Source: an uncultured bacterium (GTDB lineage: Bacteria; Omnitrophota; Omnitrophia; Omnitrophales; Aquincolibacteriaceae). Taken from it: DNA of 64,000 nucleotides. The translations under genes and the position numbers were made by a program. The DNA lies in the NCBI GenBank assembly GCA_964434115.1, contig CAYSSX010000001.1, forward strand, positions 165,855-229,854. Direction: 5' to 3'. Below are positions 1 through 46,303 of the stretch, one piece after another. Under the pieces are notes generated by a model, which saw only the letters and a program-made list of their open reading frames with translations, made no database searches and was not told the origin of the DNA. Each line of letters opens with the position of its first letter. The first letter of the stretch is position 1.

Positions 1-1327
1 TCAGATTCATGGTTTCCTGCATTTTGGCGGATCGGGCGTCGCCCAGAATCGAACGTCCGCCCAAAGCGCGCGGTCCGAATTCCATCCGGCCCTGAAACCA
101 GCCAATGACCTTCTCCTCCGCGATCAAATCCGCGGCGGTTTCCGCGATCTTGGCGTCCGGGACAAAGGTGTAAGGGATTTTTTCCTGTTCCAGAAAGGTT
201 TTGATTTCCTCCGGCGTGTATTCGGGCCCGAGATAAGAGCCTTTTAGAAAATCATGCTTTCCGTCCGCCTTGCGCGGGTGATCAAGGTACTGATACCAGG
301 CAAAGAGGGCCGCGCCCAGGGCGCCGCCGGCATCGCCTGCCGCGGGCTGGATCCAGATTTTTTCAAACGGTCCTTCGCGGAGAAGCCGCCCGTTGGCCAC
401 ACAATTGAGCGCCACGCCGCCGGCAAGGCAGAGGTTCTTCATGCCGGTTTTTTGATGAACATAGCGGGCAATCCTGAGCACGATTTCTTCGGTCACTTCC
501 TGAATGGAGCGCGCGATATCCATGTCTTTTTGCGTGACCTTGGTTTCGCTCTTCCGCGGCGGGCCGCCGAAAAGATCGTGAAAGGCCTTGGAAGTCATTT
601 CAAGACCCGCGGGAAAATTGAAATATTTCATGTTGAGCCGGAAAGACCCGTCATCTTTCAGTTCTACAATTTCCTTGAGAATAAGGTCTTTGTAGCGCGG
701 TTCGCCGTAAGGAGCGAGGCCCATGAGTTTGTATTCGCCGGAATTGACGCGGAACCCCGCGTAGTACGTGAACGCGGAATACAGAAGCCCGAGGGAATGC
801 GGAAAAATAATTTCTTCAAGAAGCGTGACGCGGTTATCTTTGCCAATGCCGAAGCTGGCCGTGGCCCATTCCCCCACGCCGTCCATGGTCAGTACCGCGG
901 CTTCCTGAAACGGGGAAGGAAAAAAAGCGGAGGCTGAATGCGATTCGTGATGCTCCGTGAAAAGGATTTTGCCTTTGTAGCCCCCCAGTTCTTCCCGGAT
1001 CACGTCCTTGGTCCAAAGCTTCCGCTTGATCCAGGTGGGCATGGCTTTGATGAAGGACTTGAGGCCGCGGGGCGTGTAAGCCATATAGGTTTGAAGCAGG
1101 CGCTCGAATTTGACCAAAGGCTTATCGTAAAACACCACGATATCAAGGTCTTCAGGCTTGAGTCCCCCGCCCGCCTTCAGGCAATAGTCCACGGCCTTGG
1201 CCGGAAATTCCGCGTCGTGTTTTTTCCGGGTAAAACGCTCCTCCTGGGCCGCGGCCACGAGATCGCCGTCGCGCACAAGGCAGGCCGCGCTGTCGTGATA
1301 AAAAGCGGAAATCCCAAGAATTTTCAT
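1..1327 (-). CDS. Carbamoyltransferase (NodU/CmcH family), partial; C-terminus lies beyond the left window edge
   Basis: Manual minus-strand translation from the ATG at 1327 is open to position 1 and is absent from the ORF track only because it has no in-window stop. It reads MKILGISAFYHDSAACLVRDGDLVAAAQEERFTRKKHD...LFTEHHESHSASAFFPSPF...GGVALNCVANGRLL..., which is typical of NodU/CmcH O-carbamoyltransferases. Confidence 0.85.
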   Translation of the reverse strand, partial: MKILGISAFYHDSAACLVRDGDLVAAAQEERFTRKKHDAEFPAKAVDYCLKAGGGLKPEDLDIVVFYDKPLVKFERLLQTYMAYTPRGLKSFIKAMPTWIKRKLWTKDVIREELGGYKGKILFTEHHESHSASAFFPSPFQEAAVLTMDGVGEWATASFGIGKDNRVTLLEEIIFPHSLGLLYSAFTYYAGFRVNSGEYKLMGLAPYGEPRYKDLILKEIVELKDDGSFRLNMKYFNFPAGLEMTSKAFHDLFGGPPRKSETKVTQKDMDIARSIQEVTEEIVLRIARYVHQKTGMKNLCLAGGVALNCVANGRLLREGPFEKIWIQPAAGDAGGALGAALFAWYQYLDHPRKADGKHDFLKGSYLGPEYTPEEIKTFLEQEKIPYTFVPDAKIAETAADLIAEEKVIGWFQGRMEFGPRALGGRSILGDARSAKMQETMNL

Positions 1328-1479
1328 GAAGCGTTAAGCCCTTGAAGTTGAAGGCGCTGAGACTGCTGGATGCCGGCCCTTTTTCCAGGATAAGGATTCC
1401 CGGAGGGGCGCGCAAAGCTTGTCTCTAACTATGGACTCTGAATAAACTTAGGTGAGATTACCCTCTTTTGGGGACGGGG

Positions 1480-2709
1480 TCAAGCGGGATTCTGGGAAGA
1501 GGACCTCTGCACAGCGGCTGCCAAAAGCCCGGCAAAAAACCAGAAATGCAGCACCGACTGCGGATTGTGAAGCAAGGTGTCGCTGGCCGCAAAGACAAGG
1601 AAACTGAGCAGGCTCGCGATAAGGCCGGCCGCGAGGTTTCTGTCCGGAGTGCTGAGGTCGCGGGATTTTTTAAAAGCCCCGGTGATGAGAAAAACGAGAA
1701 AGGCGAGAAAGGAAACCAAACCTGGGATGCCGATCTCGGCGCCCATCTGCAAATAACCATTATGCGCGTAGTACTCTTTCACCCGCCAGCTCTTCTGCCG
1801 GTCGTACTTTTCATGCGCCTTGGTGTAGGTGTTGATTCCCGTTCCGGTCAAAGGTTTGGCCTGAATCACATTGACCGCCCGCTGCCAGAGGTCAAAGCGC
1901 TCGACAATGGATTGTTCCTTGCGGTTGATGTCCAGGTGAATCAAAACGTTTTTGGGAAGCATCAGGCACCCGATGCCTGCGGCCAGCACAAGGGCCAGCG
2001 CGATTTTCCACTTGCGGTACAAAAGCAGCGTTAAAAAACTTCCGCCCAGAAGGCCGAGCCATGCCCCGCGCGAGCGTGTGAGGTAGAGACAGAACAAACC
2101 TTCAAAGGCCAGAATGAAAAGCAGGATTTGATAACGGGATTTTTTGACCGCGTTAAAGGCCAGAGCAAGAACCACCGGAACCGTGAGCACCAGAAAGGCC
2201 GCGAGCAGACCGTAGGATTTAAAAGAGGAAGTGATCCTAAGTCCAGTGGAGGCATCCACGGCCCGGAAATGGCGGACAAAATCCCAGCCGGTCACGTATT
2301 GAAACAGGCCGTCCGCCACCACCAGGCCATAGGAACAAAGAAGGACTTTTTCCGTCAGGGTCCAGGATTTCAAGTCCCGCGGAATCCGGGCCACTAAAAT
2401 GAACAGGGCCACCTGCTGAAGCACTTTGAAAATGCCGCGGAAACTTTGTTTGGGAAACTCCGACCAGGTGTACGAAAGCAGGACAATGCCCGTGTAGACC
2501 GCGAGCGCCGCCAAAGCAGGACGGTCAAGACCCGTGAAAGGGTTTCTTTTTTCCAGAACCAGCAAGAGGACGGTCACAAGAAGGGCCGCGACGGTGGCGA
2601 TTTCAATCAGCGCGGTGGAAAACGTAAAGGCCGCGAGAAGGGCGAGGAGCGAGTAAAGAAGAATTTTTTCCCATGGAAGCTGGCGGAAATTCAGCGGCGC
2701 TTTAAGCAT
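1480..2709 (-). CDS. O-antigen ligase/polymerase family (Wzy_C) polytopic membrane protein
   Basis: 409 aa with many transmembrane segments. It has the LTRSRGAWLGLLGG motif (S-R-x-A/G-W) and a large periplasmic loop, typical of the Wzy_C/WaaL family. Confidence 0.75.
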   Translation of the reverse strand: MLKAPLNFRQLPWEKILLYSLLALLAAFTFSTALIEIATVAALLVTVLLLVLEKRNPFTGLDRPALAALAVYTGIVLLSYTWSEFPKQSFRGIFKVLQQVALFILVARIPRDLKSWTLTEKVLLCSYGLVVADGLFQYVTGWDFVRHFRAVDASTGLRITSSFKSYGLLAAFLVLTVPVVLALAFNAVKKSRYQILLFILAFEGLFCLYLTRSRGAWLGLLGGSFLTLLLYRKWKIALALVLAAGIGCLMLPKNVLIHLDINRKEQSIVERFDLWQRAVNVIQAKPLTGTGINTYTKAHEKYDRQKSWRVKEYYAHNGYLQMGAEIGIPGLVSFLAFLVFLITGAFKKSRDLSTPDRNLAAGLIASLLSFLVFAASDTLLHNPQSVLHFWFFAGLLAAAVQRSSSQNPA

Positions 2710-2738
2710 CGGTCCCCTGTTCCTTTTTCCGGCCGGCT

Positions 2739-4028
2739 TCAGGCCGGGATGATTTCAAAACGCCGTTCCTGAATGGAGCTTTCCAGGGCGGTCTGCGGGC
2801 CGGGCAGCGGGAGAACGAAACGCACTCCCTTGTCTTTCCAATGGCCGATTTTTTTCAGGATCTCGCGGGCGAAATTCCACGCGAAAATAACAATGATGTC
2901 CACAGGCTGTTTTTCCAGTTCACTGCTCGGGCGGATGGGAATCTTGACGCCCGGCGTCAGGTAGTTCTGTTTCAGCGGATTGTCGTCCACCACGTAATCA
3001 ATATCGTTCGCGGTCAAACCGTAGAAATTGAGGATGGTGCTGGCCTTGGCCGGCGCGCCGTAACCCGCGATTTTTTTACCCGCAGCCTTCTCGCGCGCGA
3101 TCATGGCGCGGAAATCGTCCCGGATGCCCATCACCCGCTTGGCGAAATCCTGGTAAACCGCGCCGCTCAGATAGCCGCCGTCTTTTTCCTTCCGGAGAAA
3201 ATGCTCCACGGATTCGTGAACCGGGCGGCCGCCTGTTTTCTTCTGCATAAAGACCCTGAGCGATCCGCCGTGCGACGGGACAAAATCAATGCGGAAAATC
3301 TCAAGCCCGAATTTTTCCACGACATATTTCAGGGAATGAACCGCGATATAGGAAAGATGCTCGTGATAAATCATGTCGAAGAGCAGTTCTTCCACCATGG
3401 TGACGAGATAAGGAAACTCAATGACAAAAAGACCCTTGTCGTCCAGAAGATCGGAGACATTGCGAAGCACGCTGTGGATGTCGTCGATGTGCGCGAACAC
3501 ATTGTTGCCGCTGATGGCGTGGGCCTTGCCGTGCTGGGCGATGATCGTTTTCACGCATTCGGCGTCAAAATAACGGTTGAGCGTGGGAAAGCCGTTTTTG
3601 TTGGCCTGCTCCGCGAGGTTTTTCGCGGGGTCCACGCCGACCGAACGCATCCCCTCTTTCATGTAGCAGGAAACAAGAAGCCCGTCGTTGCTGCCGATGT
3701 CCACCGCCAGCGGAGAGTCCACGCCCGCGATTTTTTCACGCACCGAATGGGCGTAAGCGGCAAAGTGGTCCCGGAAAGTCTGGGTCGTGGAGCTGACATA
3801 AAGGTAATGCGAGAACATCAGGTCAGGCGGCACCACATGCGAGAGCTGGACCAGGCCTGATTCCGGCGACCAGACAAGGCTCAGCGGGCACGTGAACTCC
3901 GGCTTGTCTTTGTCTTCGGGCCGGACATAGGAATTGGCCAAAGCCATGGTTCCGAGTTCGAGAAACGGTTTACCAAGCGGTGCGCCGGAGTAACGGCAGG
4001 CTGTTTTTTTATAAGGGTCTTGAGGCAT
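2739..4028 (-). CDS. SAM-dependent NDP-hexose C-methyltransferase-like protein (TylCIII/NovU family)
   Basis: 429 aa with an N-terminal Cys-containing putative zinc-binding region. A class I methyltransferase core (VDIGSNDGLL) is followed by a C-methyltransferase-type C-terminal domain (GYGAPAKASTILNFYGL). Confidence 0.7.
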   Translation of the reverse strand: MPQDPYKKTACRYSGAPLGKPFLELGTMALANSYVRPEDKDKPEFTCPLSLVWSPESGLVQLSHVVPPDLMFSHYLYVSSTTQTFRDHFAAYAHSVREKIAGVDSPLAVDIGSNDGLLVSCYMKEGMRSVGVDPAKNLAEQANKNGFPTLNRYFDAECVKTIIAQHGKAHAISGNNVFAHIDDIHSVLRNVSDLLDDKGLFVIEFPYLVTMVEELLFDMIYHEHLSYIAVHSLKYVVEKFGLEIFRIDFVPSHGGSLRVFMQKKTGGRPVHESVEHFLRKEKDGGYLSGAVYQDFAKRVMGIRDDFRAMIAREKAAGKKIAGYGAPAKASTILNFYGLTANDIDYVVDDNPLKQNYLTPGVKIPIRPSSELEKQPVDIIVIFAWNFAREILKKIGHWKDKGVRFVLPLPGPQTALESSIQERRFEIIPA

Positions 4029-4042
4029 GATTTTCCTCGGGG

Positions 4043-4816
4043 TTAAGCCGTGGGCATGGGGTTGACTGCGAAAATTTTTCCGTGGCGGATCACGACATCG
4101 CTTCCCGAAGCTACCGGAAAACGGTCTTCCACAATATCCATAATGACGGAGGCCACGAAATCAGGGCTCTGCTGCTTGTCCGCGTCCTTTTGTCCAAAAA
4201 GAGCGGCGCGCATTTCCGTGTTCATGCCGCCCGGGCAGATGTTCAGGCACTTCAGCGAAGTGTCTGAGTTTTCTTTGGCCACGCACTGCGTCAAAGCGGC
4301 CATGCCGTATTTGGAGGCGGAGTAAGCAAAGAGTTTGGGGACGCCCCGGATTCCAGCCATGGAAGAAATATTGAGAATGAGTCCGCCATTGCCCTGCTTC
4401 CGGAAAACGGGAATCAAGTGTTTGGTAAGGAGAAAAGCGGAAGTGAGGTTGGAACGGATCATCTGCTCAAAATCCTTCAGCGGAGTCAAAGCCACGGGCT
4501 GAAGCGTTCCCCCGATGCCGGCATTGTTGATCAGGATATCGACGGGCTTCCCCTGGCGTGCCATTTTCTGGCAGAACGCCTTCACCTGGGCCTCCGAGGT
4601 CAAATCCACCTGGGCCATGGTCAGGCTTCCCGCGGAAGACGTTTTGCCCCCCGCCCGCGCCGGCATTTTCCCGGCGCCGGGAAAATCCGGAAGCGCTTTC
4701 CAGTTTTTGCGTGTCCGGCTGACGCCGATGACCTCGTCGCCGGCCGCGGCAAATTTCTCAGCCAAACTCCGGCCCAGGCCTCGGGAGGCGCCTGTGATAA
4801 TGACCCTGCGGTTCAT
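4043..4816 (-). CDS. SDR family oxidoreductase
   Basis: ITGASRGLGRSLA Rossmann motif, a YSASK catalytic motif and NNAG; 257 aa. Confidence 0.85.
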   Translation of the reverse strand: MNRRVIITGASRGLGRSLAEKFAAAGDEVIGVSRTRKNWKALPDFPGAGKMPARAGGKTSSAGSLTMAQVDLTSEAQVKAFCQKMARQGKPVDILINNAGIGGTLQPVALTPLKDFEQMIRSNLTSAFLLTKHLIPVFRKQGNGGLILNISSMAGIRGVPKLFAYSASKYGMAALTQCVAKENSDTSLKCLNICPGGMNTEMRAALFGQKDADKQQSPDFVASVIMDIVEDRFPVASGSDVVIRHGKIFAVNPMPTA

Positions 4817-4852
4817 GGAAATCCCCGGGTTGTGAAAGGTTGCAAGAAAAGG

Positions 4853-5269
4853 CTATTTCACGGAAGCGGTTTTCAATGCCGGATTAATATAGCCTTCCAC
4901 CACTTTATAGGCAATCGTGTCTTCCTCGTATTTTCCGCTTTCGCGTTCCAGCGTGGTGAACGCGAGAAACACCGAGTCCTGCGTGAATTTCTGGGCGTGC
5001 GCGATGTACGCCGGTGTTTCCACGATATCGCCGGGCTTGACCTGAAGCACCTGGCGCTTCGAGGTATCGCGGGTGTCCACGGAGTGGCTTTCATAGGCGC
5101 CGCTGATAAGGTAAATGTACTGGTGGTCTTTTTTGTGGTAGTGGTTCGCGCGCACCGTTCCGGCCTTGGAGGTAATCATGGCCACATGCCCCAAGTGACC
5201 TTCGAACAAATTGTGAATTTCCCCGCGGGCGTCGACGAATGCGGGATCAATGTGGCGGATGTTTTCCAT
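4853..5269 (-). CDS. Cupin-fold protein, probably sugar 3,4-ketoisomerase-like (FdtA/WxcM C-terminal domain family)
   Basis: 138 aa. It has an NHYHKKDHQY His cluster and the cupin size and context typical of dTDP-sugar isomerases in deoxysugar clusters. This is a family-level guess only. Confidence 0.45.
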   Translation of the reverse strand: MENIRHIDPAFVDARGEIHNLFEGHLGHVAMITSKAGTVRANHYHKKDHQYIYLISGAYESHSVDTRDTSKRQVLQVKPGDIVETPAYIAHAQKFTQDSVFLAFTTLERESGKYEEDTIAYKVVEGYINPALKTASVK

Positions 5270-5317
5270 GGTGGTTATCTCCTTGCTTGTTTGGGTGACT
5301 TATAAAAAGGTTTAGGG

Positions 5318-6679
5318 TTAACGGTCAGAGGCTTCAGAAAACCAGCGGACCGTACGGCGGACCCCTTCGGAAAGCGAAATCTTGGGTTCAAAGCCGGTGA
5401 TGCGCTGTAACTTTGAAATGTCCGGGCAGCGGCGTTTCGGGTCAGAGCTGGCGTAAACCGCGTGCGGCGGATCAATGCTGACCACTTCCACCTTGTGCGG
5501 CATGGCGTCGCGGACCAAATAGGCCAGATCGCGCACCGAGATTTCCGGTGACGGGTTGCCGATGTTGAAGTACTCCCCGCTTTCTTTCGCGAAAAGCACC
5601 CGGAAAATGGCTTCAACAGCGTCGCTGATATAACAAAAGGAGCGGGTGTTGCGTCCGTCCCCGTGAATCGGCAGCGGCTCTTTGCGGAGCGCGTGTTCAA
5701 TGAAGTTCGGCAGCACGCGGTAATCATCCGGCCGGATTCCGGGGCCGTAGACATTGAACGGGCGGACGATCTTGACCGGCACGTTGAAGGTTCTCCAGAA
5801 CGCCAGGCACATGGTTTCGCCGAAACGCTTGGACTCGTCATAGCAGGAGCGCGGCCCGGTAATCGATACATTGCCGTAATACTCTTCGTTCGTGGGCACG
5901 TGTTTGGGGTCCGGGTCGCCGTACACTTCGCTGGAACTGGTGAAAAGAAATCCCGAGACGTTCTTTTTATAAGCCAGCTCAAGCATGTGGCGTGTTCCCA
6001 CGGTGCCCACATCCATGGTCTCAATCGGGTATTTCGTGTAGTACGCGGGCGAAGCGATGCCTGCCGCGTGAATGATGTAATCCACCTCTTCCGGGGTTTC
6101 AAAGGGGTTGATCACATTGTGGCGGTGAAAAATAAGATTCTTGTCGGAGATCACGCGCTGTTCGTAGCCGGTCACAAAGTTGTCGAGAAGCAAGGCCCGG
6201 GTTTTTTCTTCCAGAACCGCCTCATTCAAATATTTCAGAAGATGCACCATGTAGCGGCCGAGAAAGCCGTAGGCGCCGGTGATCAAAAAGGTCTTTCCCG
6301 CGAAAAACTTATGGTACGGCCGCAGGGCCTCGGCCAGGTTTTGAATGTCTTCCCGGATGACTTTGGATTCCGTGAGCGCGGCCACATTGGCGCGTTTGCC
6401 CGCGGGAGCCTTGGTTTTGCGCGCGGGTTCTGCCGGCGCTTTCACAGCCGCGTTCTTTTTGGACTTTGAAGAGGCGGCCTGAACCGCGCCTTCTTCCGTG
6501 TCGAGTCCCTGGGTAATGTAGGTCTTGATCAGCTGCTGATAGCCCATGTCCCCTTTTTGTCCAGCCACGCCGCGGAGTTCTTCGATCATGCCCTTGGGCA
6601 TACGGATCGAGATCAGCTTGCTGTCCTTTTCCTGGGAAGCGGTCTTGTCTTTTTCTGAGGCTTTTGTTTTAGAGGGCAT
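5318..6679 (-). CDS. NAD-dependent epimerase/dehydratase (UXS/ArnA-decarboxylase-like extended SDR) with an N-terminal BrnA-like ribbon-helix-helix domain and a Lys/Ala/Pro-rich linker
   Basis: The track ORF starts at 6745. The likely start is the ATG at 6679, preceded by GAGGAA. The N-terminus (KLISIRMPKGMIEELRGVAGQKGDMGYQQLIKTYITQGL) matches the BrnA/CopG-type antitoxin ribbon-helix-helix motif (ISIRL...GKGYQT.IN). A KAPAEPARKTKAPAGKR linker follows. The catalytic part has TGAYGFLG, YDESKR and the extended-SDR C-terminal domain. Confidence 0.75.
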   Translation of the reverse strand: MPSKTKASEKDKTASQEKDSKLISIRMPKGMIEELRGVAGQKGDMGYQQLIKTYITQGLDTEEGAVQAASSKSKKNAAVKAPAEPARKTKAPAGKRANVAALTESKVIREDIQNLAEALRPYHKFFAGKTFLITGAYGFLGRYMVHLLKYLNEAVLEEKTRALLLDNFVTGYEQRVISDKNLIFHRHNVINPFETPEEVDYIIHAAGIASPAYYTKYPIETMDVGTVGTRHMLELAYKKNVSGFLFTSSSEVYGDPDPKHVPTNEEYYGNVSITGPRSCYDESKRFGETMCLAFWRTFNVPVKIVRPFNVYGPGIRPDDYRVLPNFIEHALRKEPLPIHGDGRNTRSFCYISDAVEAIFRVLFAKESGEYFNIGNPSPEISVRDLAYLVRDAMPHKVEVVSIDPPHAVYASSDPKRRCPDISKLQRITGFEPKISLSEGVRRTVRWFSEASDR

Positions 6680-6705
6680 AGTTCCTCGCTTTGACGTTAG
6701 GTCGT

Positions 6706-6745
6706 GTATATACGTTCTGAAGGCGTAGTAAAATTGTATATACAA
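6706..6745. promoter_or_regulatory. Two palindromic operator-like sites (GTATATAC at 6706-6713; TTGTATATACAA at 6734-6745) in the divergent intergenic region
   Basis: Perfect 8-bp and 12-bp palindromes share the GTATATAC core. Their centres are 30 bp apart, about three helical turns, and they lie between the divergent epimerase (minus) and GT2 (plus) genes. Confidence 0.5.
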
Positions 6746-6796
6746 AATTCAGGGGTGTCAAATATCTTTTTTCCGCGCCCCCGCCTGTCATGCGGC

Positions 6797-6825
6797 TTGA
6801 CAGAAAATGCCGCTTCCACTATCGT
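6797..6825 (+). promoter_or_regulatory. Sigma70-like promoter (TTGACA-N17-TATCGT) for the GT2 gene, predicting a leaderless mRNA
   Basis: -35 TTGACA at 6797-6802, a 17-nt spacer, and -10 TATCGT at 6820-6825. The ATG at 6832 is about 7 nt downstream, so the transcript would begin at or next to the start codon. No Shine-Dalgarno motif is present. Confidence 0.4.
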
Positions 6826-6831
6826 TTCCCC

Positions 6832-12811: not shown

Positions 12812-12813
12812 AA

Positions 12814-16468: not shown

Positions 16469-16508
16469 GAAGGTGTCCGTTGTAAGGTCCGGTGCCGGGC
16501 CGGACGAA

Positions 16509-17681: not shown

Positions 17682-17705
17682 ATTTTTATCCGGGGTTAAA
17701 AGAGA

Positions 17706-19237: not shown

Positions 19238-19338
19238 GAGAGGATTCCTTTCCTGATAAAAAGCGTGATCAATAAAGAAGTGCCGGATCTAGAAAAATGA
19301 TTCAGGGATTTTATCAGAAGTCAAAGCGGGGAACAAGT

Positions 19339-26142: not shown

Positions 26143-26146
26143 GGGC

Positions 26147-27367: not shown

Positions 27368-27415
27368 GGCTTTGTCAGATCTTGAAGAGATCGGTTTGAA
27401 AAGGTTTCAGGGTGC

Positions 27416-30121: not shown

Positions 30122-30127
30122 AGGATT

Positions 30128-32343: not shown

Positions 32344-32348
32344 GGTTT

Positions 32349-33248: not shown

Positions 33249-33290
33249 AGAGGCATCTTACGGGATTTTAGAAATCTGTAAAAGGAGCTT

Positions 33291-39237: not shown

Positions 39238-40985
39238 AAGGGGTCCTTATCCAGAGAAAGCTTGTAAACTTCAAGAAGCGGGCCGGCCAGACGGCGGGCA
39301 CTTAACTCTTTGCTTAAAAAAGGCGCTCCGGTCATGGCGTAAGGATCAAAAGACGCGGCAATTAAAGAATCCCGGAAGGGCGTGAAACGGGCTACGGGCT
39401 CCAAAGCCGGAAGCGTTTTGAGAAATGCGGAAAGCCTCGCCTCATCATGGCCTCTTTCCACCACCACGTAGGAAATGCCCAGGCCTCGGAGTTTTTCAGC
39501 GTCATACGGCACGGGTTCAGGAGCCAGCACAAAAACCGGCCCGGGATTTTCATCGTGAGTGAGCTGGTACAGCCTGTAACCCGGCCGCTGGCCGGCCTTG
39601 TCCCAAAGAAATTGAAGACGTCTTTTCTGGACTTCAGGAAACGCGCCTGAAGATTCAATCCGGCTGAGTTTTTCCCGCAGGGAATCTTCGGACCAGGCAA
39701 GGCGGGGTCCGTAAAAAGGCACACTCAAAGCAACCCCCGAGTTTTTGGGAAGATGCCTTTCTATCCAGTTTTTTGCGTCTGTCCGGGTGTCCCCCGCTGT
39801 AAGAATGCCGCCCAGCTGAATGGATTTTTGAAGCGGCTGAAAAAGGGCTGCAAGCAAAAAGCCCGTGGTCAGAAGTGTTTTAAAAAACGGTTTCTGAACT
39901 GCCGCGGTTAAAGAGAAAATGGAATCCGCGGCAAAAAAGGCAATGAAAGGAGTGAGCGGGAGAGTGTAACGGTCATACAATTGTCCTCCCAGAACAAGAA
40001 CAACATAATAGGAAAGAACGAAAGACAGAAGAACAAAACGGGCCTTGATGGAAACCGGGGCTCCTTGGGGGCGGATTAAAGAGACCATTCCGGCAAGCGC
40101 AAACCCCAGCATCAGTGAGCCTGTCCCTTCCAGGGCTGAGTAAAGCAAGGGGTGCATCCAGGGAACTCCCCCGGCATGCGCGGCGCCTTCCGCCGCTAAC
40201 TCGTTGCAGAAAAACTGAAAATCAAGCGCGGCAAACGGGTTCAAAATAATAAAGACGGCCAAGGAACACAGGCCCGCTAAAAAAATTCCGGCGAGCGGAA
40301 TTTTCTTTGATTCAGCGGCTTGAAACAGGCACGCGGCCCCATAAGGCACGACGAGAAACACCCCGTTGTATTTGAAGGCCGCCGCGAGGCCTATCCAAAA
40401 ACCGCAAAGCAAATGCCTTTTCAGGGAAGAAGCTTCCGGCTTGGCGTCCAGCAGATTAAAAAAAGATCCCATGGCCGCGGTCAGAACAGCAAGAAGCGGC
40501 ATATCCGTGTAAATATAATGAGAGTCGCGCACATGAAGAAAACATACCGCGAGAAGTAAAGCCGCGGCCAAGGCCCTGCCCTCGCCAAAAATCCTCATGG
40601 TCACGCGGTACAGAAAAAAGATGCCAAGGACGCCGGGCAGAACACCGAGGACGACGCGCCCTATCCAATAAAACGCCGTGGGGTCCGAGTAAAAAAGCCG
40701 CTCAAAGTCAGACGGTGCGTAGAAAACCCCGGACAGCTTTCCCGCCAGAAAAAAAAGTCCGTAAAAAAGAAAAAGGAGGTAACTCGTGAGCGGCGGAATC
40801 CGGAAAAAATGCGGGTGAAGGTCGCCTGAGCCGTAAGCCAGGGCGTGATTGACGACAATGGGTTCATCCGCGTGATACAGGTCAGGCAGGCCGAAGGAGA
40901 TTCCCCAGATCCGAAGTGCGAATCCCAGGAGAAGAATGGCCGTTAAAGCAAGCGTGATTGAGCCCGAGGACCGGATTGAGTTCAT
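39234..40985 (-). CDS. GT-C fold membrane glycosyltransferase, ArnT/PMT_2 (GT39-like) family
   Basis: LYHADEPIVVNHAL DE-motif loop and R...F...A..LLLAV helix. The internal ATG at 40985 shares a base with the TGA of the GT2 gene (TGATG). The 32-aa extension in the track is spurious. Confidence 0.7.
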   Translation of the reverse strand: MNSIRSSGSITLALTAILLLGFALRIWGISFGLPDLYHADEPIVVNHALAYGSGDLHPHFFRIPPLTSYLLFLFYGLFFLAGKLSGVFYAPSDFERLFYSDPTAFYWIGRVVLGVLPGVLGIFFLYRVTMRIFGEGRALAAALLLAVCFLHVRDSHYIYTDMPLLAVLTAAMGSFFNLLDAKPEASSLKRHLLCGFWIGLAAAFKYNGVFLVVPYGAACLFQAAESKKIPLAGIFLAGLCSLAVFIILNPFAALDFQFFCNELAAEGAAHAGGVPWMHPLLYSALEGTGSLMLGFALAGMVSLIRPQGAPVSIKARFVLLSFVLSYYVVLVLGGQLYDRYTLPLTPFIAFFAADSIFSLTAAVQKPFFKTLLTTGFLLAALFQPLQKSIQLGGILTAGDTRTDAKNWIERHLPKNSGVALSVPFYGPRLAWSEDSLREKLSRIESSGAFPEVQKRRLQFLWDKAGQRPGYRLYQLTHDENPGPVFVLAPEPVPYDAEKLRGLGISYVVVERGHDEARLSAFLKTLPALEPVARFTPFRDSLIAASFDPYAMTGAPFLSKELSARRLAGPLLEVYKLSLDKDPL

Positions 40986-41698
40986 CAACGAAGGTGCATA
41001 AGGCGGATCTTCAAAATATCGAGAAACATCAGCATGGGGTCTAGCAGAAGGCGGACACGCGTCTGCGCCGAATGCCTCCACACCACGGGTTTCTCAAAAA
41101 CTTTGTAGCCGCATTTTTGCGCTAAATAAATGATTTCCACGTCAAAACTGAAACCCTCGATTTTTTGCAGGGTAAATAATTTGTGGGCCGCTTCCCTGCG
41201 AAAACACTTAAAGCCGCACTGGGAATCCTCAATGCCTTTGAAGGTCAAAAAACGGGCGATGCGGTTGAAGACCTTGCCCATCCACTCCCTGAAAAATTCC
41301 TGACGCACTTCAATCTTCGACCGGTCAAGCGCGCGGGAACCGATCACAACGTCCTGATCTTTTTTCAGAAGCTCAAGAAATCCCATGATTTCTTCGATCG
41401 GGGTCGAGAGGTCGGCATCGGAAAATAAAATATAATTTCCCCTGCCGGCAAGCATGCCCAGTTTAACCGCGTGGCCTTTGCCCCGGTTGGGACGGGTTTC
41501 GATGATTTTGTGCTCAATGTTCTGGAGACAGCGGCGGGCCACTTCGACGGTACCGTCGGAACTGCCGTCATCGGAAACAATGATTTCGTAGCGCAGCCCC
41601 TGCGAGTTCAGGAAATGGATAATCTCGCGAAGCGTTTTTTCAATGCGCTTCTCTTCATTGTATGCGGGGATAACGACGGAAAGGTCGAGTTCTGACAC
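40985..41698 (-). CDS. GT2 polyprenol-phosphate glycosyltransferase (ArnC/GtrB/dolichyl-phosphate glucosyltransferase-like)
   Basis: SVVIPAYNEE, SDDGSSDGT and SDADLS (DXD); 237 aa. Confidence 0.85.
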   Translation of the reverse strand: MSELDLSVVIPAYNEEKRIEKTLREIIHFLNSQGLRYEIIVSDDGSSDGTVEVARRCLQNIEHKIIETRPNRGKGHAVKLGMLAGRGNYILFSDADLSTPIEEIMGFLELLKKDQDVVIGSRALDRSKIEVRQEFFREWMGKVFNRIARFLTFKGIEDSQCGFKCFRREAAHKLFTLQKIEGFSFDVEIIYLAQKCGYKVFEKPVVWRHSAQTRVRLLLDPMLMFLDILKIRLMHLR

Positions 41699-41729: not shown

Positions 41730-42683
41730 TTAAGCCGGACTTACAGGCTGTTTTTGACGAAAATACTCAATCGTGGATTTGAGACCGTCCTGCAATGCGA
41801 TTTTGGGTTCCCAGCCAAAAGCCTTCCGGGCCTTGGTGATATCGGGCTGGCGGATTTTGGGATCATCGACGGGCAGCGGTTTGTAATCAATGCGGCTCTG
41901 ACTGCCGGTCATACGGATAATGGTTTCCGCAAGCTGAAGAATCGTCATTTCATTGGGGTTCCCCAGATTAACGGGGTCGTTGATATCGGAAAAAAGGACA
42001 TGGGTCAAACCTTCGACCAGGTCCGAGACATAACAAAAACTGCGTGTCTGGTTTCCGCTTCCAAAAACGGGAATGGCTTCATTTTTCAACGCGGCTGAAA
42101 TAAATTCAGGAATCGCGCGGCCGTCACGAAGGCGCATGCGGGGGCCGTACGTATTGAAAATACGGATGATTTTGGTATTCAGTCCATGGTAGGTGTGATA
42201 GGCCATGGTCATGGCCTCGGCAAAGCGTTTGGCCTCGTCATACACGCCGCGGGGACCTACGGGATTCACATTCCCCCAGTAAGTCTCTTTCTGCGGGTGA
42301 ACCAGCGGATCGCCGTAAACTTCCGAAGTCGAGGCGATCAGAAACGTCGCCTTCTTGGCCTTGGCAAGTCCCAAAGCATTGTGGGTTCCGAGCGCGCCGA
42401 CTTTCAACGTAGGAATCGGGTATTGAAGGTAATCCACGGGGCTTGCCGGAGACGCGAAATGAAGAACGTAATCCACCGGCCCGGCATAGTCGATGTGGTC
42501 ACTGACATTTTGCTCCAGCAGCGTGAAGCGGGGCTCTGTTTTCAGATGCGCGATATTGTCGCGGTTACCTGTCAAAAAGTTGTCCACGCAGACCACGCGG
42601 AAGCCTTTGTTCAAATAAAAATCACACAAATGGGAGCCGATAAAGCCTGCTCCCCCTGTAATTAAAACAATCTTTTCAGACAT
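41730..42683 (-). CDS. uxs: UDP-glucuronate decarboxylase (UDP-xylose synthase / ArnA-decarboxylase-like extended SDR)
   Basis: [32 protein letters not shown] and [10 protein letters not shown]. This is a strong UXS signature. Confidence 0.85.
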
Positions 42684-42711: not shown

Positions 42712-44022
42712 TTATTTCTTGCTGCTTCGCCCTATGCCGTAATAGTCGAAGCCGAGGTTTTTAATTTCTTCCGGATCGTAGAGATTACGTCCGTCAAAAA
42801 TGACCGGTGACTTCAGAAGACGTTTGATTTTTTTCATGTCCAGCGTTTTGAATTCTTTCCAGTCCGTCAGTACGGCGAGCGCATCCGCTCCGCGGCAGAC
42901 TTCGTAAGCGCTCGAAGTAAACTGAACACCCTTGAAAAGCGGCTTCGCCTTTTCCATGGCTTCAGGGTCATAGGCGCGGATTTTCACACCTTCCTTCTGA
43001 AGGGCTTCAATGATTTCGATAGACGGCGCAAAACGCATATCGTCTGTATTGCCTTTGAAGGCCAAACCCAGAACACCGATTGTTTTTCCGCGCAGATTCC
43101 AGAGAACCCGCTCGATCAGCTGAACATAGTAAAGCTTCTGGGTGTCATTGATTTCGAGGACTTCTTTAAGCATGTTGAAAGGGACGCCCAGGGATTTGGA
43201 CATGTGGTAGAAAGCGGCAAGGTCTTTCGGAAAACAGAATCCGCCAAAACCGATTCCGGCTTTAAGGAAACTGGCCCCAATGCGCGGGTCAAGGCCCATA
43301 CCCCTTGAAACCTGCTCAATGTCCGCGCCCACAGCATCACAGACGCGGGCGACCATATTAATGAAAGAGATTTTTGTAGCGAGAAAGGAATTAGAGGCAT
43401 GTTTGATGATTTCCGCGCTCTTGATGTCTGTCACCACTAAAGGGGCCTTCACCGGCGCGTAGAGTTTGCGGAGCAGATCCTCAGCGCGGCGGCTGGAAAC
43501 GCCGACCACGATGCGGTCCGGTTTCAAAAAATCTTCAATGGCCGACCCTTCGCGGAGAAACTCGGGGTTGGAGGCAACGTCAAAATCGACTTTGCGGCGG
43601 TGATTGGCCTTGATCGTTTTGTAAACCCGTTCCCCGGTTTGCACAGGGACCGTGCTTTTTTCAACCACCAGGCAGTAATGCGTGAGGTTGCGCGCGATTT
43701 CCCGGGAAACATTTTCCACATAGGAGAGATCCGCGCCGCCGTCATCCCGCGGCGGGGTATTGACGCAGATGAAAATGACTTCGGAAGTTTTAACGGCATC
43801 GGCAATCGAGCTGGTAAAAGTGATTTTTTTCTTTTTCCGGGCCGCCTTGATCATTTCAGAGAGTCCCGGTTCGTAAATCGGAACTTTCCCTTTTCTGAGG
43901 ATCGCGAGTTTTTTCGGGTCGTTATCCACGCAGGTGACCTGGTGTCCGAGATGCGCGAAACAGGCTCCCGTTACAAGCCCGACATAACCCGATCCGATAA
44001 TTCCGACTTTAATACTGGCCAT
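42712..44022 (-). CDS. ugd: UDP-glucose 6-dehydrogenase
   Basis: [13 protein letters not shown] and the [10 protein letters not shown] catalytic Cys motif. The start is set at the internal ATG at 44022, just after the lptD stop. Confidence 0.9.
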
Positions 44023-46303
44023 AACTAAAATTTCCCCCATCCTCAAGGTTGGTATAACCCATGTCTTGGTTGGCTCCCGCTACAGTTTCGCCGATTCTGG
44101 GGGGAGAAAAGGACGAACGGGAACCGCTTTTTAAGTTGATTTGCGGATACTGCTTCATACGAAGCTGAAAAAAGATTTCTTTATTGGAGTCAGCAATTTG
44201 AGAATTGCGGACGTTGTAACCAAAATCAAAAAGCAGGCAGTACATGTCGCGCGTGGCCATGAGCTGCCACTCGTCGATCTGGGCGCCTTCGGCGTTCCAG
44301 CGGATGTACCCGCCCAGGTTCCAGTATTCATTCAGTTTGTAATGGCCGTCAAAAATGAACTGCGTGCTGCCCTCAATTTCCTGGTCCGGAATGTCCGTGA
44401 TATAGCGGTGCCCGAAAATAAGGTAAAGCTTGTCCGTCGCGTGAATGAGGAGGTCTTGATTAAACACGCTGAGTTCGGAGGTGAGAAAGTTGTATTCCGC
44501 GCGGACTTGAAATTGAAGCCAGTTGTAGGGGCGCAGTGTCAATTCCTGTTCAAGCGTTGTGAAAGAAGCGCCTTTTTCAACATTGTGGGGGTTTGGCGAA
44601 AAATTGAGAAAGGTGTTATAGCTCACGATGTCAACGCGATGGGTGCGGCCGTTAATGACCCTTTTGGTCTGCAGGCGGTTTTCCAGGCCCAAAGTCACAA
44701 CATCCGCGTCATCAATGGTGTCAATATGATCGAAGCGGTGCAGGGTTTCATCGCTGACGGTTGAACGCACGGCATTATACGCGAGAACGGGCTCCATCAC
44801 GTGACGGAGGCGGTTCACTTCAACGCCCCATTTGTCAAAAGTGGATTCGTAGGTCTTGTAATACTGATTGCGGATGTCAACCCCCGCGCCGCCGACCATG
44901 CGGAAAGTGTCATCGCCTTCGTCGCGCTGCCGGCTGTAATAGGTTCCCCGGCTGTTCACGTAGGGTGTGACTTTAAAATCATTCAGTTTGAACGGGTAGG
45001 AAATTTCACTCCAGTGGTCCGCGCGGTTCACATCTTCGCTGTAACGGCTCCGGCGAAGGGTCTTTTCAAGGTTTGCGTAGCTTGTCTCGTTTTCATAATA
45101 AAGCCCCTTGTTTCCAAGAGGCTGGTTCTTCCAGTTGACGCGCACTTCCGGAAGACGTTCCACCGTGGATTCAAAGCTGTTCATCTTCTTAGTGGCATGA
45201 ATAAGGGCACCGTAACGCTCCCCGTTTTTGGTCAGGGTCACAAAGGAGCTTGGTTCCACTTCGCTGCGGTGTTCTTTCTGAAAAAATTCCTGGAGGAAAT
45301 ATTCGTCGGCAAGCCTGTGATAGCGGAGCTGAATGTTGGAGTATTCATCCAGGTCTGTCCGGTGCCACCAGGACAAGCGTCCTCTGGCGCGGTCTTCTCT
45401 TTCGCTGAAAGGATCTTCCAGTCCTGGGCTGGGCGCGCGCTTATCCTGGGTCGCGTACCCTTTGATCAAACCGTGCCCGAATTTACCGAAATTGTAATTC
45501 AGGTCCGCTCCGCCGCCGAACCCGCGCCGGGCGCGCCAGTCAAAATGAAGTTTTCCATAAATATTCTTCGTGATGCTGAAGCCTTTGGAGGTTTCGATGT
45601 AGGCGCCGAATTCTGATTTGTAGCCGGCCGACACCTGCAAGGGGGCGTTCTTCTGCTGCAGCGGAATCACCAGGTAAGGCCACCAGAAAATCGGCTTTCC
45701 AAGCGAGTAAATCGTAACGTTCCGCGCCACCATTTTATCGTCTTGATGAATGGTGACTTTCTTGGCGTGGATTTCATACGGCGGGTTCTCCCCTTTACAT
45801 GTCGTGAAGGCCGTGTCGGTCGCGACGGAAGTCGTGGCGTTTTGTTTGTCAATTTGCTGGGCTTTACAATGCCAGGGGTAGGCGAGGATGGTCCCCTGCG
45901 GGAAACTGCCGGAGTCGGTATTGAAATCGTAATAAACGTCTTCACCCTTCGCGGTCGGCGTATCGCCGCTGAAAATAATGACGTGTCCGCGGGCATAGGC
46001 CTTTTTGGTTTCAGTTTCGACCTCGGCGTAGTCGGCCGTGATCTTCTGAGAACCGTAGGTGATGACAACGTTCCCCTTTGCCACCACTTTGTTTTCCTGT
46101 TTCAGGTATTCCAGTGTGTCGGCAACGGTTTCAACTTTCGGCTGCACTTCTTCAAACTTATCCTTTACAGGCAGTGCCCGGGCCGAAGAGGTTTCGGGAG
46201 GTTCATCCGCGAAGGCTGGAATGGAAAAGGATAAACTTGAAAGAATCAAAAAAACAAAAAACTCGGGGGAACGTTTCAAAAACCGAAAGAATGATAGTGT
46301 CAT
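44009..46303 (-). CDS. lptD: LPS-assembly outer membrane protein LptD (OstA family)
   Basis: 764 aa with a signal peptide, an N-terminal OstA-like domain and a large C-terminal beta-barrel-type region rich in Y/W/G alternation. Confidence 0.75.
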   Translation of the reverse strand: MTLSFFRFLKRSPEFFVFLILSSLSFSIPAFADEPPETSSARALPVKDKFEEVQPKVETVADTLEYLKQENKVVAKGNVVITYGSQKITADYAEVETETKKAYARGHVIIFSGDTPTAKGEDVYYDFNTDSGSFPQGTILAYPWHCKAQQIDKQNATTSVATDTAFTTCKGENPPYEIHAKKVTIHQDDKMVARNVTIYSLGKPIFWWPYLVIPLQQKNAPLQVSAGYKSEFGAYIETSKGFSITKNIYGKLHFDWRARRGFGGGADLNYNFGKFGHGLIKGYATQDKRAPSPGLEDPFSEREDRARGRLSWWHRTDLDEYSNIQLRYHRLADEYFLQEFFQKEHRSEVEPSSFVTLTKNGERYGALIHATKKMNSFESTVERLPEVRVNWKNQPLGNKGLYYENETSYANLEKTLRRSRYSEDVNRADHWSEISYPFKLNDFKVTPYVNSRGTYYSRQRDEGDDTFRMVGGAGVDIRNQYYKTYESTFDKWGVEVNRLRHVMEPVLAYNAVRSTVSDETLHRFDHIDTIDDADVVTLGLENRLQTKRVINGRTHRVDIVSYNTFLNFSPNPHNVEKGASFTTLEQELTLRPYNWLQFQVRAEYNFLTSELSVFNQDLLIHATDKLYLIFGHRYITDIPDQEIEGSTQFIFDGHYKLNEYWNLGGYIRWNAEGAQIDEWQLMATRDMYCLLFDFGYNVRNSQIADSNKEIFFQLRMKQYPQINLKSGSRSSFSPPRIGETVAGANQDMGYTNLEDGGNFSYGQY

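Follow-up and report, generated by a model that had tools for sequence, protein, structure and literature searches.

The Arn pathway (PmrHFIJKLM), which adds 4-amino-4-deoxy-L-arabinose (L-Ara4N) to lipid A, consists of Ugd, ArnA, ArnB, the family 2 glycosyltransferase (GT2) ArnC, ArnD, ArnE/F and the GT-C enzyme ArnT. We compared this and several other described pathways with a locus of an uncultured bacterium of the phylum Omnitrophota, which lies in a 64,000-nucleotide stretch that we refer to as the window (assembly GCA_964434115.1, contig CAYSSX010000001.1, positions 165,855 to 229,854). An open reading frame (ORF) listing combined with Pfam and NCBIfam scans placed 38 genes in this locus, from lptD (44009-46303), which encodes the lipopolysaccharide (LPS) outer-membrane insertase, to position 1. 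To our knowledge, there is no experimental knowledge of the glycans on the Omnitrophota envelope. In two Omnitrophota genome preprints, glycosyltransferases for LPS and capsule come up solely as variable cargo. The explanation that we favour, and that we hold to be slightly better than an even bet, is a vertically inherited, composite LPS-biosynthesis and decoration locus that grew around an ancestral module tied to lptD. Its notable features are a phylum-wide link between lptD and a UXS-fed GT2/GT-C pair, the presence of seven GT-C candidates together, and the shuffling of modules among close relatives.

Comparison with described pathways

Both the Arn pathway and this locus begin with Ugd and UDP-glucuronate (UDP-GlcA), followed by a decarboxylating short-chain dehydrogenase/reductase (SDR). 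In both, an ArnC-like GT2 adjoins a GT-C with genes that abut or overlap, and both are tied to LPS, here through lptD. In contrast to Arn, the SDR of the locus is a true UDP-glucuronate decarboxylase (UXS) and not ArnA, and it has no formyltransferase domain; no ArnD or ArnE/F family occurs among the 38 genes; the ArnB-like aminotransferase lies 13 kb away in another module; and the GT-C in question (GT-C1), a GT39/PMT_2-type protein, is similar to ArnT in fold only (TM-score of about 0.5). With ArnA, ArnD and ArnE/F tested for and not found, the locus is not a member of the Arn pathway.

The three-component systems GtrA/GtrB/GtrC (O-antigen glucosylation) and CsbB/GtcA/YfhO (lipoteichoic acid) join a cytoplasmic polyprenyl-phosphate sugar synthase to an extracytoplasmic GT-C. 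Likewise, the locus has three such GT2s, assigned at the family level only, and seven GT-C candidates of which one is YfhO-like. It differs from these systems in having no dedicated small flippase, in carrying seven GT-C genes instead of one, and in a donor that would be fed by UXS and not by UDP-Glc, UDP-GlcNAc or phosphoribosyl pyrophosphate (PRPP). The pentofuranose three-component system combines a PRPP-fed polyprenyl phosphoribose synthase with a MATE flippase and GT136 (PMC11127046), and neither that synthase nor that flippase is present in the locus. Mycobacterial arabinogalactan and lipoarabinomannan synthesis (Emb and Aft enzymes, with decaprenyl-phosphate-arabinose) is similar in that several GT-Cs act in series on lipid-linked pentoses, and both families (Emb, AftA) are found among the fold matches of GT-C1. 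However, the GT-C families differ, the mycobacterial donor derives from PRPP and not from UXS, and the present organism is a diderm with LptD.

With Wzx/Wzy/WaaL O-antigen clusters the locus shares Wzx, a candidate Wzy, a WaaL-fold ligase, a GT4 and nucleotide-sugar genes, together with a WcaJ-type primer in the extension of the locus in a relative. It is unlike them in that no Wzz was found and Wzy is below threshold, and in that it also incorporates core genes (GT9, GmhB) and genes for modification of the lipid A/core type. In size (at least 46 kb, and about 54 kb in the relative) and in number of genes it clearly exceeds what is typical of O-antigen clusters. The pathways for pseudaminic and legionaminic acid (Pse/Leg), beside which the sps genes of Bacillus subtilis serve as a comparison system, have counterparts here in a NeuB-family synthase, a CTP_transf_3 enzyme, a DegT aminotransferase, N-acyltransferases and a PseG-like protein. 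Unlike in those pathways, all of these enzymes score below the equivalog cutoffs, the NeuB homologue is without a SAF domain, and the 2-epimerase is the non-hydrolysing WecB; the product could be another ulosonic acid. A GT-B protein of the locus with a DxD pattern and D/E-D/E-G and HP motifs resembles the nonulosonic-acid transferase of Tannerella forsythia (PMC5420450). Altogether, the locus would work like a merger of an Arn-type module, a Gtr/CsbB-YfhO-type decoration system, a Wzx/Wzy/WaaL system and a Pse/Leg-type branch. Every part belongs to a known family, and the locus is an enlarged mosaic of known pathway types and not a new kind of machine.

The core module beside lptD

All genes described below are on the minus strand unless stated otherwise. 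The anchor of the locus, LptD, has a hydrophobic segment at residues 13-34 and, at residues 61-190, the N-terminal LptA-like beta-jellyroll domain (PF03968; LptD_N 32.8 bits, cutoff 20.4), and more than 100 Omnitrophota homologues were found, some of them named LptD. The C-terminal beta-barrel (PF04453) was not listed at E<=0.001 in the scan of the window; both PF04453 and PF03968 are precomputed for P0121, a database protein identical to the window LptD, and PF04453 is also listed, with no flag for a weak or faint match, for the LptD orthologues in the relatives L013-L017. A PDB sequence search with LptD returned zero matches.

The next gene, ugd (42712-44040), overlaps the lptD stop by 32 nt and encodes a UDP-glucose 6-dehydrogenase with all three UDPG_MGDP_dh domains, which scored 481.6 bits against the NDP-sugar dehydrogenase subfamily model (cutoff 189.8) and 543.8 bits against TuaD. 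It is followed by UXS (41730-42683; 317 aa), a UDP-glucuronate decarboxylase that makes UDP-xylose. UXS matched human UXS1 with 341 bits (E 6.5e-101), its next non-UXS match in the PDB reached 139 bits, and its orthologues in relatives are 67-95% identical. Two other identities considered for this SDR beside Ugd were rejected on the same scores: a UDP-GlcA 4-epimerase as in the Rhizobium-type galacturonic acid (GalA) system, of which the best match was the one at 139 bits, and ArnA, whose model gave 91.7 bits against a cutoff of 777.

GT2a (40985-41698; Glycos_transf_2 106 bits) is a soluble polyprenyl-phosphate glycosyltransferase-like protein of the ArnC/DPMS/GtrB type. Its top PDB matches were DPMS (5mlz, 75.9 bits), ArnC (62) and GtrB (60), and against the ArnC model it scored 70.7 bits with a cutoff of 529; it has no transmembrane (TM) segment and is without the C-terminal TM helices of ArnC. 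GT-C1 (39234-40985), a GT39/PMT_2-type protein (PMT_2 49 bits, PMT 33 bits) and the conserved partner of UXS and GT2a, gave zero matches in a PDB sequence search. When its AlphaFold2 (AF2) model (pLDDT 92.8) was compared with the PDB by Foldseek, the best 37 matches were all GT-C enzymes, which confirmed GT-C1 as a GT-C enzyme by its modelled fold. ALG9 (1.9e-9) stood ahead of ArnT (5f15; 3.7e-9), which came second, and STT3/AglB, ALG12, Pmt4, Emb and AftA were also matched. Superposition on ArnT 5f15 gave a TM-score of 0.49-0.52 at 14% identity, no closer than ALG9. Within the GT-C1 family, D40 and E41 are invariant. A partnership between GT2 and GT-C is suggested by a natural fusion of the two, the 863-aa database protein P0350, in which a GT2 (PF00535) and PMT/PMT_2 occur in one chain.

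In the core pathway that we propose, Ugd would produce UDP-GlcA and UXS would convert it into UDP-xylose, after which the soluble, ArnC/DPMS-like GT2a would load the pentose onto undecaprenyl phosphate (Und-P). After flipping, the GT39-type GT-C1, working on the periplasmic side, would attach the pentose to lipid A/core or O-antigen. The logic would be that of ArnC/ArnT, with xylose replacing Ara4N.

Conservation of the core in related genomes

The relatives, found through LptD, were metagenome-assembled genomes of Omnitrophota, with homologues named LptD or GT39 of Candidatus Omnitrophota. Their LptD identity to the window was 87% (L003), 74% (a contig sampled as L013, L005 and L011), 62% (L014), 55% (L016), 49% (L015) and 46% (L017). 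A preliminary description of the window had taken the region as a single glycan cluster, and the genes are indeed not scattered elsewhere: four independent assemblies are collinear with it. L003 follows the window from lptD to GT-C4, the 253-kb JGI contig Ga0209573_1000086 and its ENA twin (L013, L005, L011) do so over positions 1-46303, and short Logan contigs do so across lptD to GT-C1.

Since independent assemblies share the gene order, the cluster is not an assembly chimera. The possibility of such a chimera, or of a recently acquired foreign island, we consider very improbable indeed. The order is identical in independent JGI, ENA, NCBI and Logan assemblies, the flanks are syntenic too, and no integrase or transposase was found in or bordering the cluster, nor was a tRNA found to flank it; in favour of an island, the left part of the cluster has a slightly higher G+C content (0.54-0.57 at 1-20000) than the housekeeping flank (about 0.49-0.52 at 46000-64000).

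Wherever the fetched flank reached, all sampled relatives (46-87% LptD identity) had lptD-ugd, a UXS orthologue and then a GT-C. In L014, L016, L015 and L017 this run comprises ugd, SDR genes including the UXS orthologue (67-76% identical), GT2a (49-62%) and GT-C1 (41-46%), and GT2a is present in five of seven relatives at 49-89% identity. The glycan genes of L015 end directly after the GT-C and are followed by pyruvate-oxidoreductase genes. Because the L015 module stops there, the ancestral unit would be lptD-ugd-(SDRs)-UXS-GT2-GT-C, and the other ~40 kb would be a clade expansion. A concrete phylum-wide marker is offered by the adjacency of ugd to lptD together with a UXS orthologue, a GT-C and, in most cases, a GT2.

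The cluster had been described as reaching from lptD to the left edge of the window. The gene run was borne out but its end was not, because the cluster of a relative continues past that edge. In L011 it runs ~10 kb beyond the carbamoyltransferase gene, giving a whole locus of ~54 kb including lptD, with the order SxtJ, DUF5989, GT9 (a heptosyltransferase-family protein), GT4, GT4, a WcaJ-type phosphoglycosyltransferase (WcaJ model 432 bits, cutoff 410.75), GT2, a GmhB-like phosphatase (GmhB 170 bits, cutoff 178) and a GT28-like gene, after which a uracil-DNA glycosylase gene bounds the cluster. No initiating phosphoglycosyltransferase was found in the window, and the L011 copy lies ~6 kb beyond the syntenic left edge. 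As the WcaJ-type gene occurs in the syntenic L011, the primer of the window organism most likely lies just off the left edge; by synteny, the heptosyltransferase and GmhB genes would be expected just beyond it as well. No match to the Wzz family was found in the window or in L011.

The association with LPS that the preliminary description suggested gained support from the conserved lptD-ugd-UXS-GT-C linkage, from the WaaL-fold ligase described below, and from the GT9, GmhB-like and WcaJ-type genes of the relative. A capsule-like glycan, which it had offered as another option, found no support: no Wza, Wzc or Kps-type genes were seen.

Outside the core, modules are rearranged. A third relative, represented by ~50-55-kb Logan contigs (L018 and L019, from DRR438485 and DRR438484, respectively), has a comparable ~50-kb locus which keeps GT2c, the RHH-SDR, cupin, SDR, C-methyltransferase, WaaL and carbamoyltransferase genes at 57-91% identity. 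In this relative two PMT_2 genes replace the DUF2079 pair of the window, a DUF2079 gene directly follows GT-C1, and DUF2079, LbH, DegT and SGNH genes stand between GT-C1 and GT-C2. In comparison with the 74% relative, the cytoplasmic sugar-nucleotide enzymes are 81-96% identical and the GT-C, Wzy, WaaL, DUF2079 and GT-B proteins 46-67%. The picture of one single ornate product given in the preliminary description does not sit well with a conserved core whose accompanying modules are shuffled between relatives. It appears, rather, that a 50-kb surface-glycan locus can arise from a small, conserved module for modification, with its modules reshuffled between close relatives. Such reshuffling usually reflects phage or host-interaction pressure.

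Gene packing and transcription

The count of about 38 genes, all but one GT2 on one strand, was reproduced: 37 genes are on the minus strand and one, GT2c (6832-7617), is on the plus strand. Gaps had been described as mostly under 50 bp with many overlaps, and this also held. After adjustment of some gene starts, 18 of the 36 minus-strand junctions overlapped and 15 measured 0-50 bp, while the three larger ones measured 101 bp (19238-19338), 152 bp (1328-1479) and 934 bp, the last containing the plus-strand GT2. The coding fraction is 98.6% across 1-44040, and the co-directional run begins further right than lptD, at accD (51120).

The very long polycistronic transcript that this spacing had been taken to imply did not fare as well. 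The run is broken by the opposite-strand GT2 and by a divergent intergenic region (6680-6831) between the RHH-SDR gene and GT2c with back-to-back sigma-70-like promoter matches, at 6761-6733 on the minus strand (TTGACA-17-TACAAT, 11/12) and at 6797-6825 on the plus strand (10/12). These are pattern matches only, and are the best two sigma-70-like matches within 1-20000. A single 44-kb transcript is therefore not supported. Terminator pattern scans gave matches that were modestly or not at all above shuffled controls, and Rfam and tRNA scans found two tRNAs only, both outside the glycan cluster. The convergent genes GT2c and DUF2079a overlap by 4 nt in their stop codons (7614-7617), which leaves no space for terminators between them. 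Two plus-strand ORFs (254-937 and 938-1345) without a Pfam match and antisense to the carbamoyltransferase gene were discarded as artefacts.

Spacing and synteny both bear on a rather unlikely alternative, in which the genes share a neighbourhood only, and lipid A/core modification, a Wzx/Wzy polysaccharide and decorations of other polymers are made separately, with no single glycan or operon. The lptD-ugd-UXS-GT2-GT-C module standing alone in L015, the position swaps of DUF2079 and PMT_2 genes, the loss of GT2a in some relatives, the divergent promoter-like region, the 101- and 152-bp gaps, and the span of orthologue identity across the locus (46-96%) would all suit this explanation. It is harder to reconcile with the extreme packing, in which 18 overlapping junctions cross the proposed module borders, with the one Wzx, the one strong ligase and the one primer (in the relative) that serve the whole locus, or with the conservation of the entire order in the 74% relative.

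Additional GT-C and GT2 genes

Under the favoured explanation of a composite LPS locus, the block at 30128-39237 would be a clade addition that contributes four further GT-Cs, one methyltransferase and another GT2 for a lipid-linked sugar. GT-C2 (37531-39237) is of the PMT_2 type (35.5 bits, cutoff 26.1), with seven hydrophobic segments and a D120-E121 pair that is kept in its orthologues (L003, L013, L014, L019). The adjoining 796-aa protein (35144-37534) is a YfhO-like GT-C candidate that scored 27.6 bits against YfhO (cutoff 28.5; E 1.2e-6) in an alignment spanning residues 25-605; it has ten hydrophobic segments and orthologues in L003, L013 and L019. A profile comparison of this protein with the GT-C1 family was negative; it is a likely GT-C candidate. 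GT-C4 (33291-35144) is a borderline PMT_2-type protein (26.4 bits, cutoff 26.1) with nine hydrophobic segments and orthologues in L003 and L013/L005. It is followed by a class-I S-adenosylmethionine (SAM) methyltransferase, MT2 (32349-33248; Methyltransf_23 77.8 bits), of which the L005 orthologue is 72% identical.

GT-C5 (30853-32343) is a divergent, PMT_2-related GT-C which itself scored 20.6 bits against PMT_2 (cutoff 26.1). Of its family members, 53/69 matched PMT_2, and comparison of the GT-C5 and GT-C1 families by hhalign gave 98.7% probability (E 2.7e-16) over 458 columns, so that its homology to GT-C1 was confirmed at the profile level. The GT-C5 family is small: 1.84 billion proteins yielded 353 representatives at E<=0.001. 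Its first extracytoplasmic loop has no conserved acidic residue, unlike those of GT-C1, GT-C2, the YfhO-like protein and DUF2079, and only E144 is invariant. Judged by these residues, GT-C5 may have a different catalytic arrangement or may be non-catalytic.

A second clade addition would be the block at 6832-10885, with the third GT2 and two neighbouring DUF2079 membrane proteins, both GT-C candidates: b (9254-10885; DUF2079 179 bits) and a (7614-9257; 227.8 bits), which share 38% identity. Comparison of DUF2079 with the GT-C1 family by hhalign gave only 53%. DUF2079 and YfhO, which we take to be placed in the GT-C clan, were assigned to the window proteins by Pfam only. Among the GT-C paralogues the DUF2079 pair was the only BLASTP match, and hhalign with thin profiles found nothing convincing. 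Of the seven GT-C proteins proposed originally, five thus passed Pfam (the two DUF2079 proteins and those with PMT_2 scores of 49, 35 and 26.4 bits) and GT-C5 was rescued by its profile, but the YfhO-like protein stayed below threshold (27.6 vs 28.5 bits).

The three small GT2s (237-261 aa) have no predicted TM helices, and models for polyprenyl-phosphate glycosyltransferases (ArnC, AglJ, PpgS, PgfS) ranked first for two of the three and close to first for the other, always below cutoff. GT2b (30128-30856; Glycos_transf_2 103.6 bits), a second protein like polyprenyl-phosphate glycosyltransferases, had AglJ, ArnC, dolichyl-P hexose transferase and PpgS as its top NCBIfam matches, all sub-cutoff, and has an 88% identical orthologue in L005. 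GT2c (6832-7617, plus strand; Glycos_transf_2 84.5 bits), the third such protein and the product of the sole plus-strand gene, matched PgaC_IcaA best, followed by PgfS, ArnC and AglJ, again below cutoff; its orthologues have 261 aa in L011, where the gene is also on the opposite strand, and 269 aa in L018. Other lipid-linked sugars for the remaining GT-Cs would come from GT2b, whose gene lies beside that of GT-C5, and from GT2c, whose gene converges with the DUF2079 pair.

A putative nonulosonic-acid branch

The block at 20872-30121 would serve the synthesis of a 5,7-diamino nonulosonic acid, or of a related ulosonic acid, in CMP-activated form, and its transfer by a dedicated GT-B enzyme. It starts with a CMP-sugar-acid synthetase (29381-30121; CTP_transf_3 107.8 bits) for which KdsB-type models gave ~60 bits and PseF 18.8 bits, all below cutoff, and a weak PseG-like protein (28245-29381; TIGR03590 PseG 51.2 bits, cutoff 153.6) that had neither a Pfam match nor a PDB sequence match and is 66% identical to its L005 orthologue. 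The NeuB-family ulosonic-acid synthase (27416-28252; NeuB 234.5 bits) scored 260 bits against NeuB_NnaB (cutoff 399.65) and 243 bits against PseI (cutoff 340.25). It is a short form of 278 aa without the C-terminal SAF domain, and the NCBIfam alignments end at model position ~272/329. Because the orthologue in L005 (89% identical) is equally long, the short form is not a sequencing truncation. The DegT/PseC/ArnB-type sugar aminotransferase (26147-27367; DegT_DnrJ_EryC1 451 bits) reached 408 bits against ArnB (cutoff 631) and 361 bits against PseC (cutoff 423.5), and is followed by MT1 (25285-26199), a class-I SAM methyltransferase (Methyltransf_23 75.8 bits, Methyltransf_11 69 bits).

The 632-aa GT-B protein (23400-25298; Glycos_transf_1 46 bits, Glyphos_transf 35 bits) had been labelled TagF-like. 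It matched the BFO_1060 family with 68 bits, below the cutoff of 200, and has a DxD pattern (335), an EDG motif (448) and an HP motif (488), in blocks that are identical in the L005 orthologue; a PDB sequence search gave marginal matches only. The BFO_1060 family is that of the Tannerella transferase for Pse/Leg derivatives (PMC5420450). From its family match and motifs, the protein is more likely a candidate nonulosonic-acid transferase than a TagF-like enzyme. The remaining genes of the block encode a GFO/IDH/MocA oxidoreductase (22411-23403; three GFO_IDH_MocA domains, with the UDP-GlcNAc 3-dehydrogenase model at 113 bits, sub-cutoff), a GNAT N-acyltransferase (21698-22456; Acetyltransf_1 58.8 bits, WecD-type 110 bits with a cutoff of 219) and a classical SDR oxidoreductase (20872-21666; adh_short_C2 178.8 bits). 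The start of the latter was reset to the ATG at 21666, which has GAGG upstream, as the domain begins at residue 91 of the long ORF.

Proposed O-unit assembly, ligation and further modification

In the block at 11969-20862, an O-unit would be assembled with Wzx, a candidate Wzy, WecB (for UDP-ManNAc), a GT4, a LegB-like dehydratase and an LbH acetyltransferase, and the SGNH enzyme and the CDP-alcohol phosphotransferase would belong to this Wzx/Wzy-type block as well. The Wzx-type MOP flippase (19339-20862; Polysacc_synt_3 69.4 bits, cutoff 23) has eight hydrophobic segments. Next come a LegB-like NDP-sugar 4,6-dehydratase (18254-19237; GDP_Man_Dehyd 213 bits, LegB 257.5 bits with a cutoff of 475; 96% identical in L005), an LbH (hexapeptide) sugar N-acetyltransferase (17706-18287; Hexapep 84 bits, NeuD/PglB/VioB 103.5 bits with a cutoff of 160.8), and a 390-aa protein to which no role was assigned (16509-17681). 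The latter is 82% conserved in L005 and had sub-threshold GH76, GH47 and pectate-lyase matches and a weak PDB match (3k7x, E 0.0055). WecB (15290-16468), a non-hydrolysing UDP-GlcNAc 2-epimerase, scored 419.9 bits against TIGR00236 (cutoff 210); a hydrolysing NeuC/LegG was rejected for this Epimerase_2 gene, NeuC giving 92.9 bits. A GT4 glycosyltransferase (14241-15293; Glycos_transf_1 62 bits, Glyco_transf_4 31 bits) precedes the candidate Wzy polymerase (12814-14244), for which ~ten TM helices were predicted from 12 partly overlapping hydrophobic segments, and which had no NCBIfam match. The block ends with a membrane protein of the CDP-alcohol phosphotransferase family (11969-12811; CDP-OH_P_transf 32 bits, cutoff 22) and an SGNH/GDSL hydrolase (10878-11972; Lipase_GDSL_2 37 bits) with an N-terminal anchor in the form of one hydrophobic segment. 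Models of the inositol-phosphate-synthase type matched the former with ~31-38 bits, below cutoff. The phospho-alcohol chemistry of the preliminary description thus has its gene, the basis being a single 32-bit match.

Two Wzy_C proteins had been named as polymerase or ligase. The one at 1480-2709 was upheld with 97.2 bits, but the candidate Wzy, with 25.6 bits, fell below the cutoff of 31.7. The former was modelled by AF2 with a pLDDT of 93.9, and its best PDB fold match was WaaL (7tpg; TM-score 0.69-0.70, E 3.5e-8), followed by SEDS proteins at ~0.45-0.55; the "O-glycosylation ligase" model gave 67.6 bits. The protein models as a WaaL-type ligase, and its predicted fold would fit a PglL-type O-oligosaccharyltransferase too.

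Another possible reading of the locus, or of most of it, is a general protein O-glycosylation system, which we regard as unlikely. Here, the PglL-type Wzy_C protein would move a Wzx-flipped O-unit from undecaprenyl pyrophosphate (Und-PP) to surface proteins, and the PMT_2 enzymes would glycosylate Ser/Thr of envelope proteins directly. The families involved allow for it: Wzy_C spans both WaaL and O-oligosaccharyltransferases, as the score against the O-glycosylation ligase model illustrates, PMT_2/PMT is the family of protein O-mannosyltransferases, and Pmt4 is among the fold matches of GT-C1. Moreover, the closest named relative of the GT-B protein, the Tannerella transferase, caps a protein-bound O-glycan (PMC5420450). 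However, WaaL is the only solved structure that closely resembles the ligase, the tie to lptD is kept phylum-wide, the extended cluster includes genes for a heptosyltransferase and GmhB, and no gene for a target protein or S-layer was found in the locus.

In terms of the composite LPS locus, the block at 1-6679 would provide a C-methyl deoxysugar (through an SDR, a cupin, a second SDR and a C-methyltransferase), WaaL-like ligation and carbamoylation. The first SDR (5318-6679; Epimerase 164.7 bits) is UXS/4,6-dehydratase-like, 39% identical to UXS, and is fused to an N-terminal ribbon-helix-helix (RHH)/CopG-like segment (CopG_antitoxin 22.5 bits, cutoff 28). The N-terminal extension of ~130 aa consists of this CopG/RHH-like segment, SKLISIRMPKGMIEELRGVAGQKGDMGYQQLIKTYITQGL, and a linker rich in Lys and Ala. 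L011 has the same fusion (453 aa), as does L018, where 494 aa were called and homology begins at an internal Met ~47 residues in. A DNA-binding-type fold is thereby joined to a sugar-nucleotide enzyme whose gene adjoins the divergent promoter-like region. The cupin (4853-5269; Cupin_2 29 bits), similar to sugar ketoisomerases/epimerases, is 90-91% identical in relatives, and an orthologue has a weak FdtA match. The classical SDR that follows (4043-4816; adh_short 154 bits) is a candidate ketoreductase, and the NDP-sugar C-methyltransferase (2739-4028) matched Methyltransf_14 with 168.9 bits and Methyltransf_13 with 64.3 bits. The last gene, for a NodU/CmcH-type carbamoyltransferase (1-1327; NodU 83 bits), is cut by the window edge: its frame is open from the ATG at 1327 to position 1, and the NodU alignment covers model positions 1-431/556. 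The full-length orthologue in L011 has 606 aa with Carbam_trans_N and Carbam_trans_C. All of the glycan functions listed in the preliminary description were found, this cut gene included, and the gene families make nonulosonic-acid, C-methyl and carbamoyl chemistry plausible. The firmest single assignments in the locus are those of UXS, WecB, Ugd, the C-methyltransferase, Wzx, the DegT aminotransferase, the NeuB domain, CTP_transf_3 and both DUF2079 proteins.

Assessment of the proposed pathway

What was observed directly comprises the families of the genes, their spacing, their synteny and two modelled folds. From these we infer the sugars, the lipid-linked xylose donor and the acceptor, and likewise that a single molecule is the product of all modules. 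Several points weigh against the composite LPS locus with its xylose-based core. The organism is uncultivated, and its glycan chemistry is deduced from genes alone. No flippase of the GtrA, ArnEF or MATE type was found in the window cluster or in the extension of the relative, and with 98.6% of the region coding there is no room for a dedicated flippase gene. GT2a is absent in L013 and L019, where gaps of 75 bp and 45 bp, respectively, separate UXS and GT-C1, so a strict coupling of UXS, GT2a and GT-C1 is not universal. GT-C1 resembles ArnT no more closely than it does ALG9 or STT3 (TM-score ~0.5) and would fit more than one class of acceptor, and the ligase, as modelled, would fit either WaaL or a PglL-type protein O-oligosaccharyltransferase. 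Most of the putative nonulosonic-acid enzymes score below their NCBIfam cutoffs, with a NeuB homologue without a SAF domain, and the shuffling of modules between relatives would fit several products as well as one. Finally, a lipid-linked xylose donor was not found in the literature searched, in which there was also no mention of DUF2079, or of UXS together with ArnT and lipid A.

The locus makes the testable prediction that a lipid-linked pentose is added to LPS. A more far-reaching proposal would be a phylum-wide pathway, linked to lptD, by which LPS receives xylose or a pentose derived from it in the periplasm via Und-P-xylose and which has expanded in this clade to a periplasmic line of seven GT-Cs. 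We put this forward as a doubtful idea. If true, a diderm would use the GT-C line to assemble or elaborate much of its surface glycan extracytoplasmically, in the manner of mycobacteria and the eukaryotic endoplasmic reticulum.

Housekeeping flank and heptose genes

To the right of lptD, genes for AccD, a MalK-like ABC ATPase, a GAF-GGDEF cyclase and a GGDEF cyclase lead up to lptD in this order (46316-51219), and rpoN lies divergently upstream of accD. The order accD-ABC-GGDEF-GGDEF-lptD was kept in every relative for which the upstream flank was retrieved (74-46% LptD identity), so that two diguanylate cyclases are permanently tied to lptD and the glycan genes. A 12/12 sigma-70-like match (TTGACA-18-TATAAT; pattern match only) is located upstream of accD at 51219-51190 on the minus strand. 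Two tRNA genes lie in this flank, tRNA-Thr(CGT) at 53376-53451 (plus strand) and tRNA-Gly(CCC) at 56183-56256 (minus strand).

The window also contains heptose genes. A GmhA match reached 205 bits against a cutoff of 209. Together, HldC and GmhA in the window and GT9 and GmhB in the extension of the relative support a heptose-containing LPS core. The HldC-type domain (196.5 bits, cutoff 181.5) is fused to ThiE (186 bits, cutoff 145) in one ORF at 57221-58387, beside which a PfkB kinase gave a weak match to the HldE kinase domain (38.6 bits); in L016, HldC and ThiE are encoded by separate, adjacent genes.

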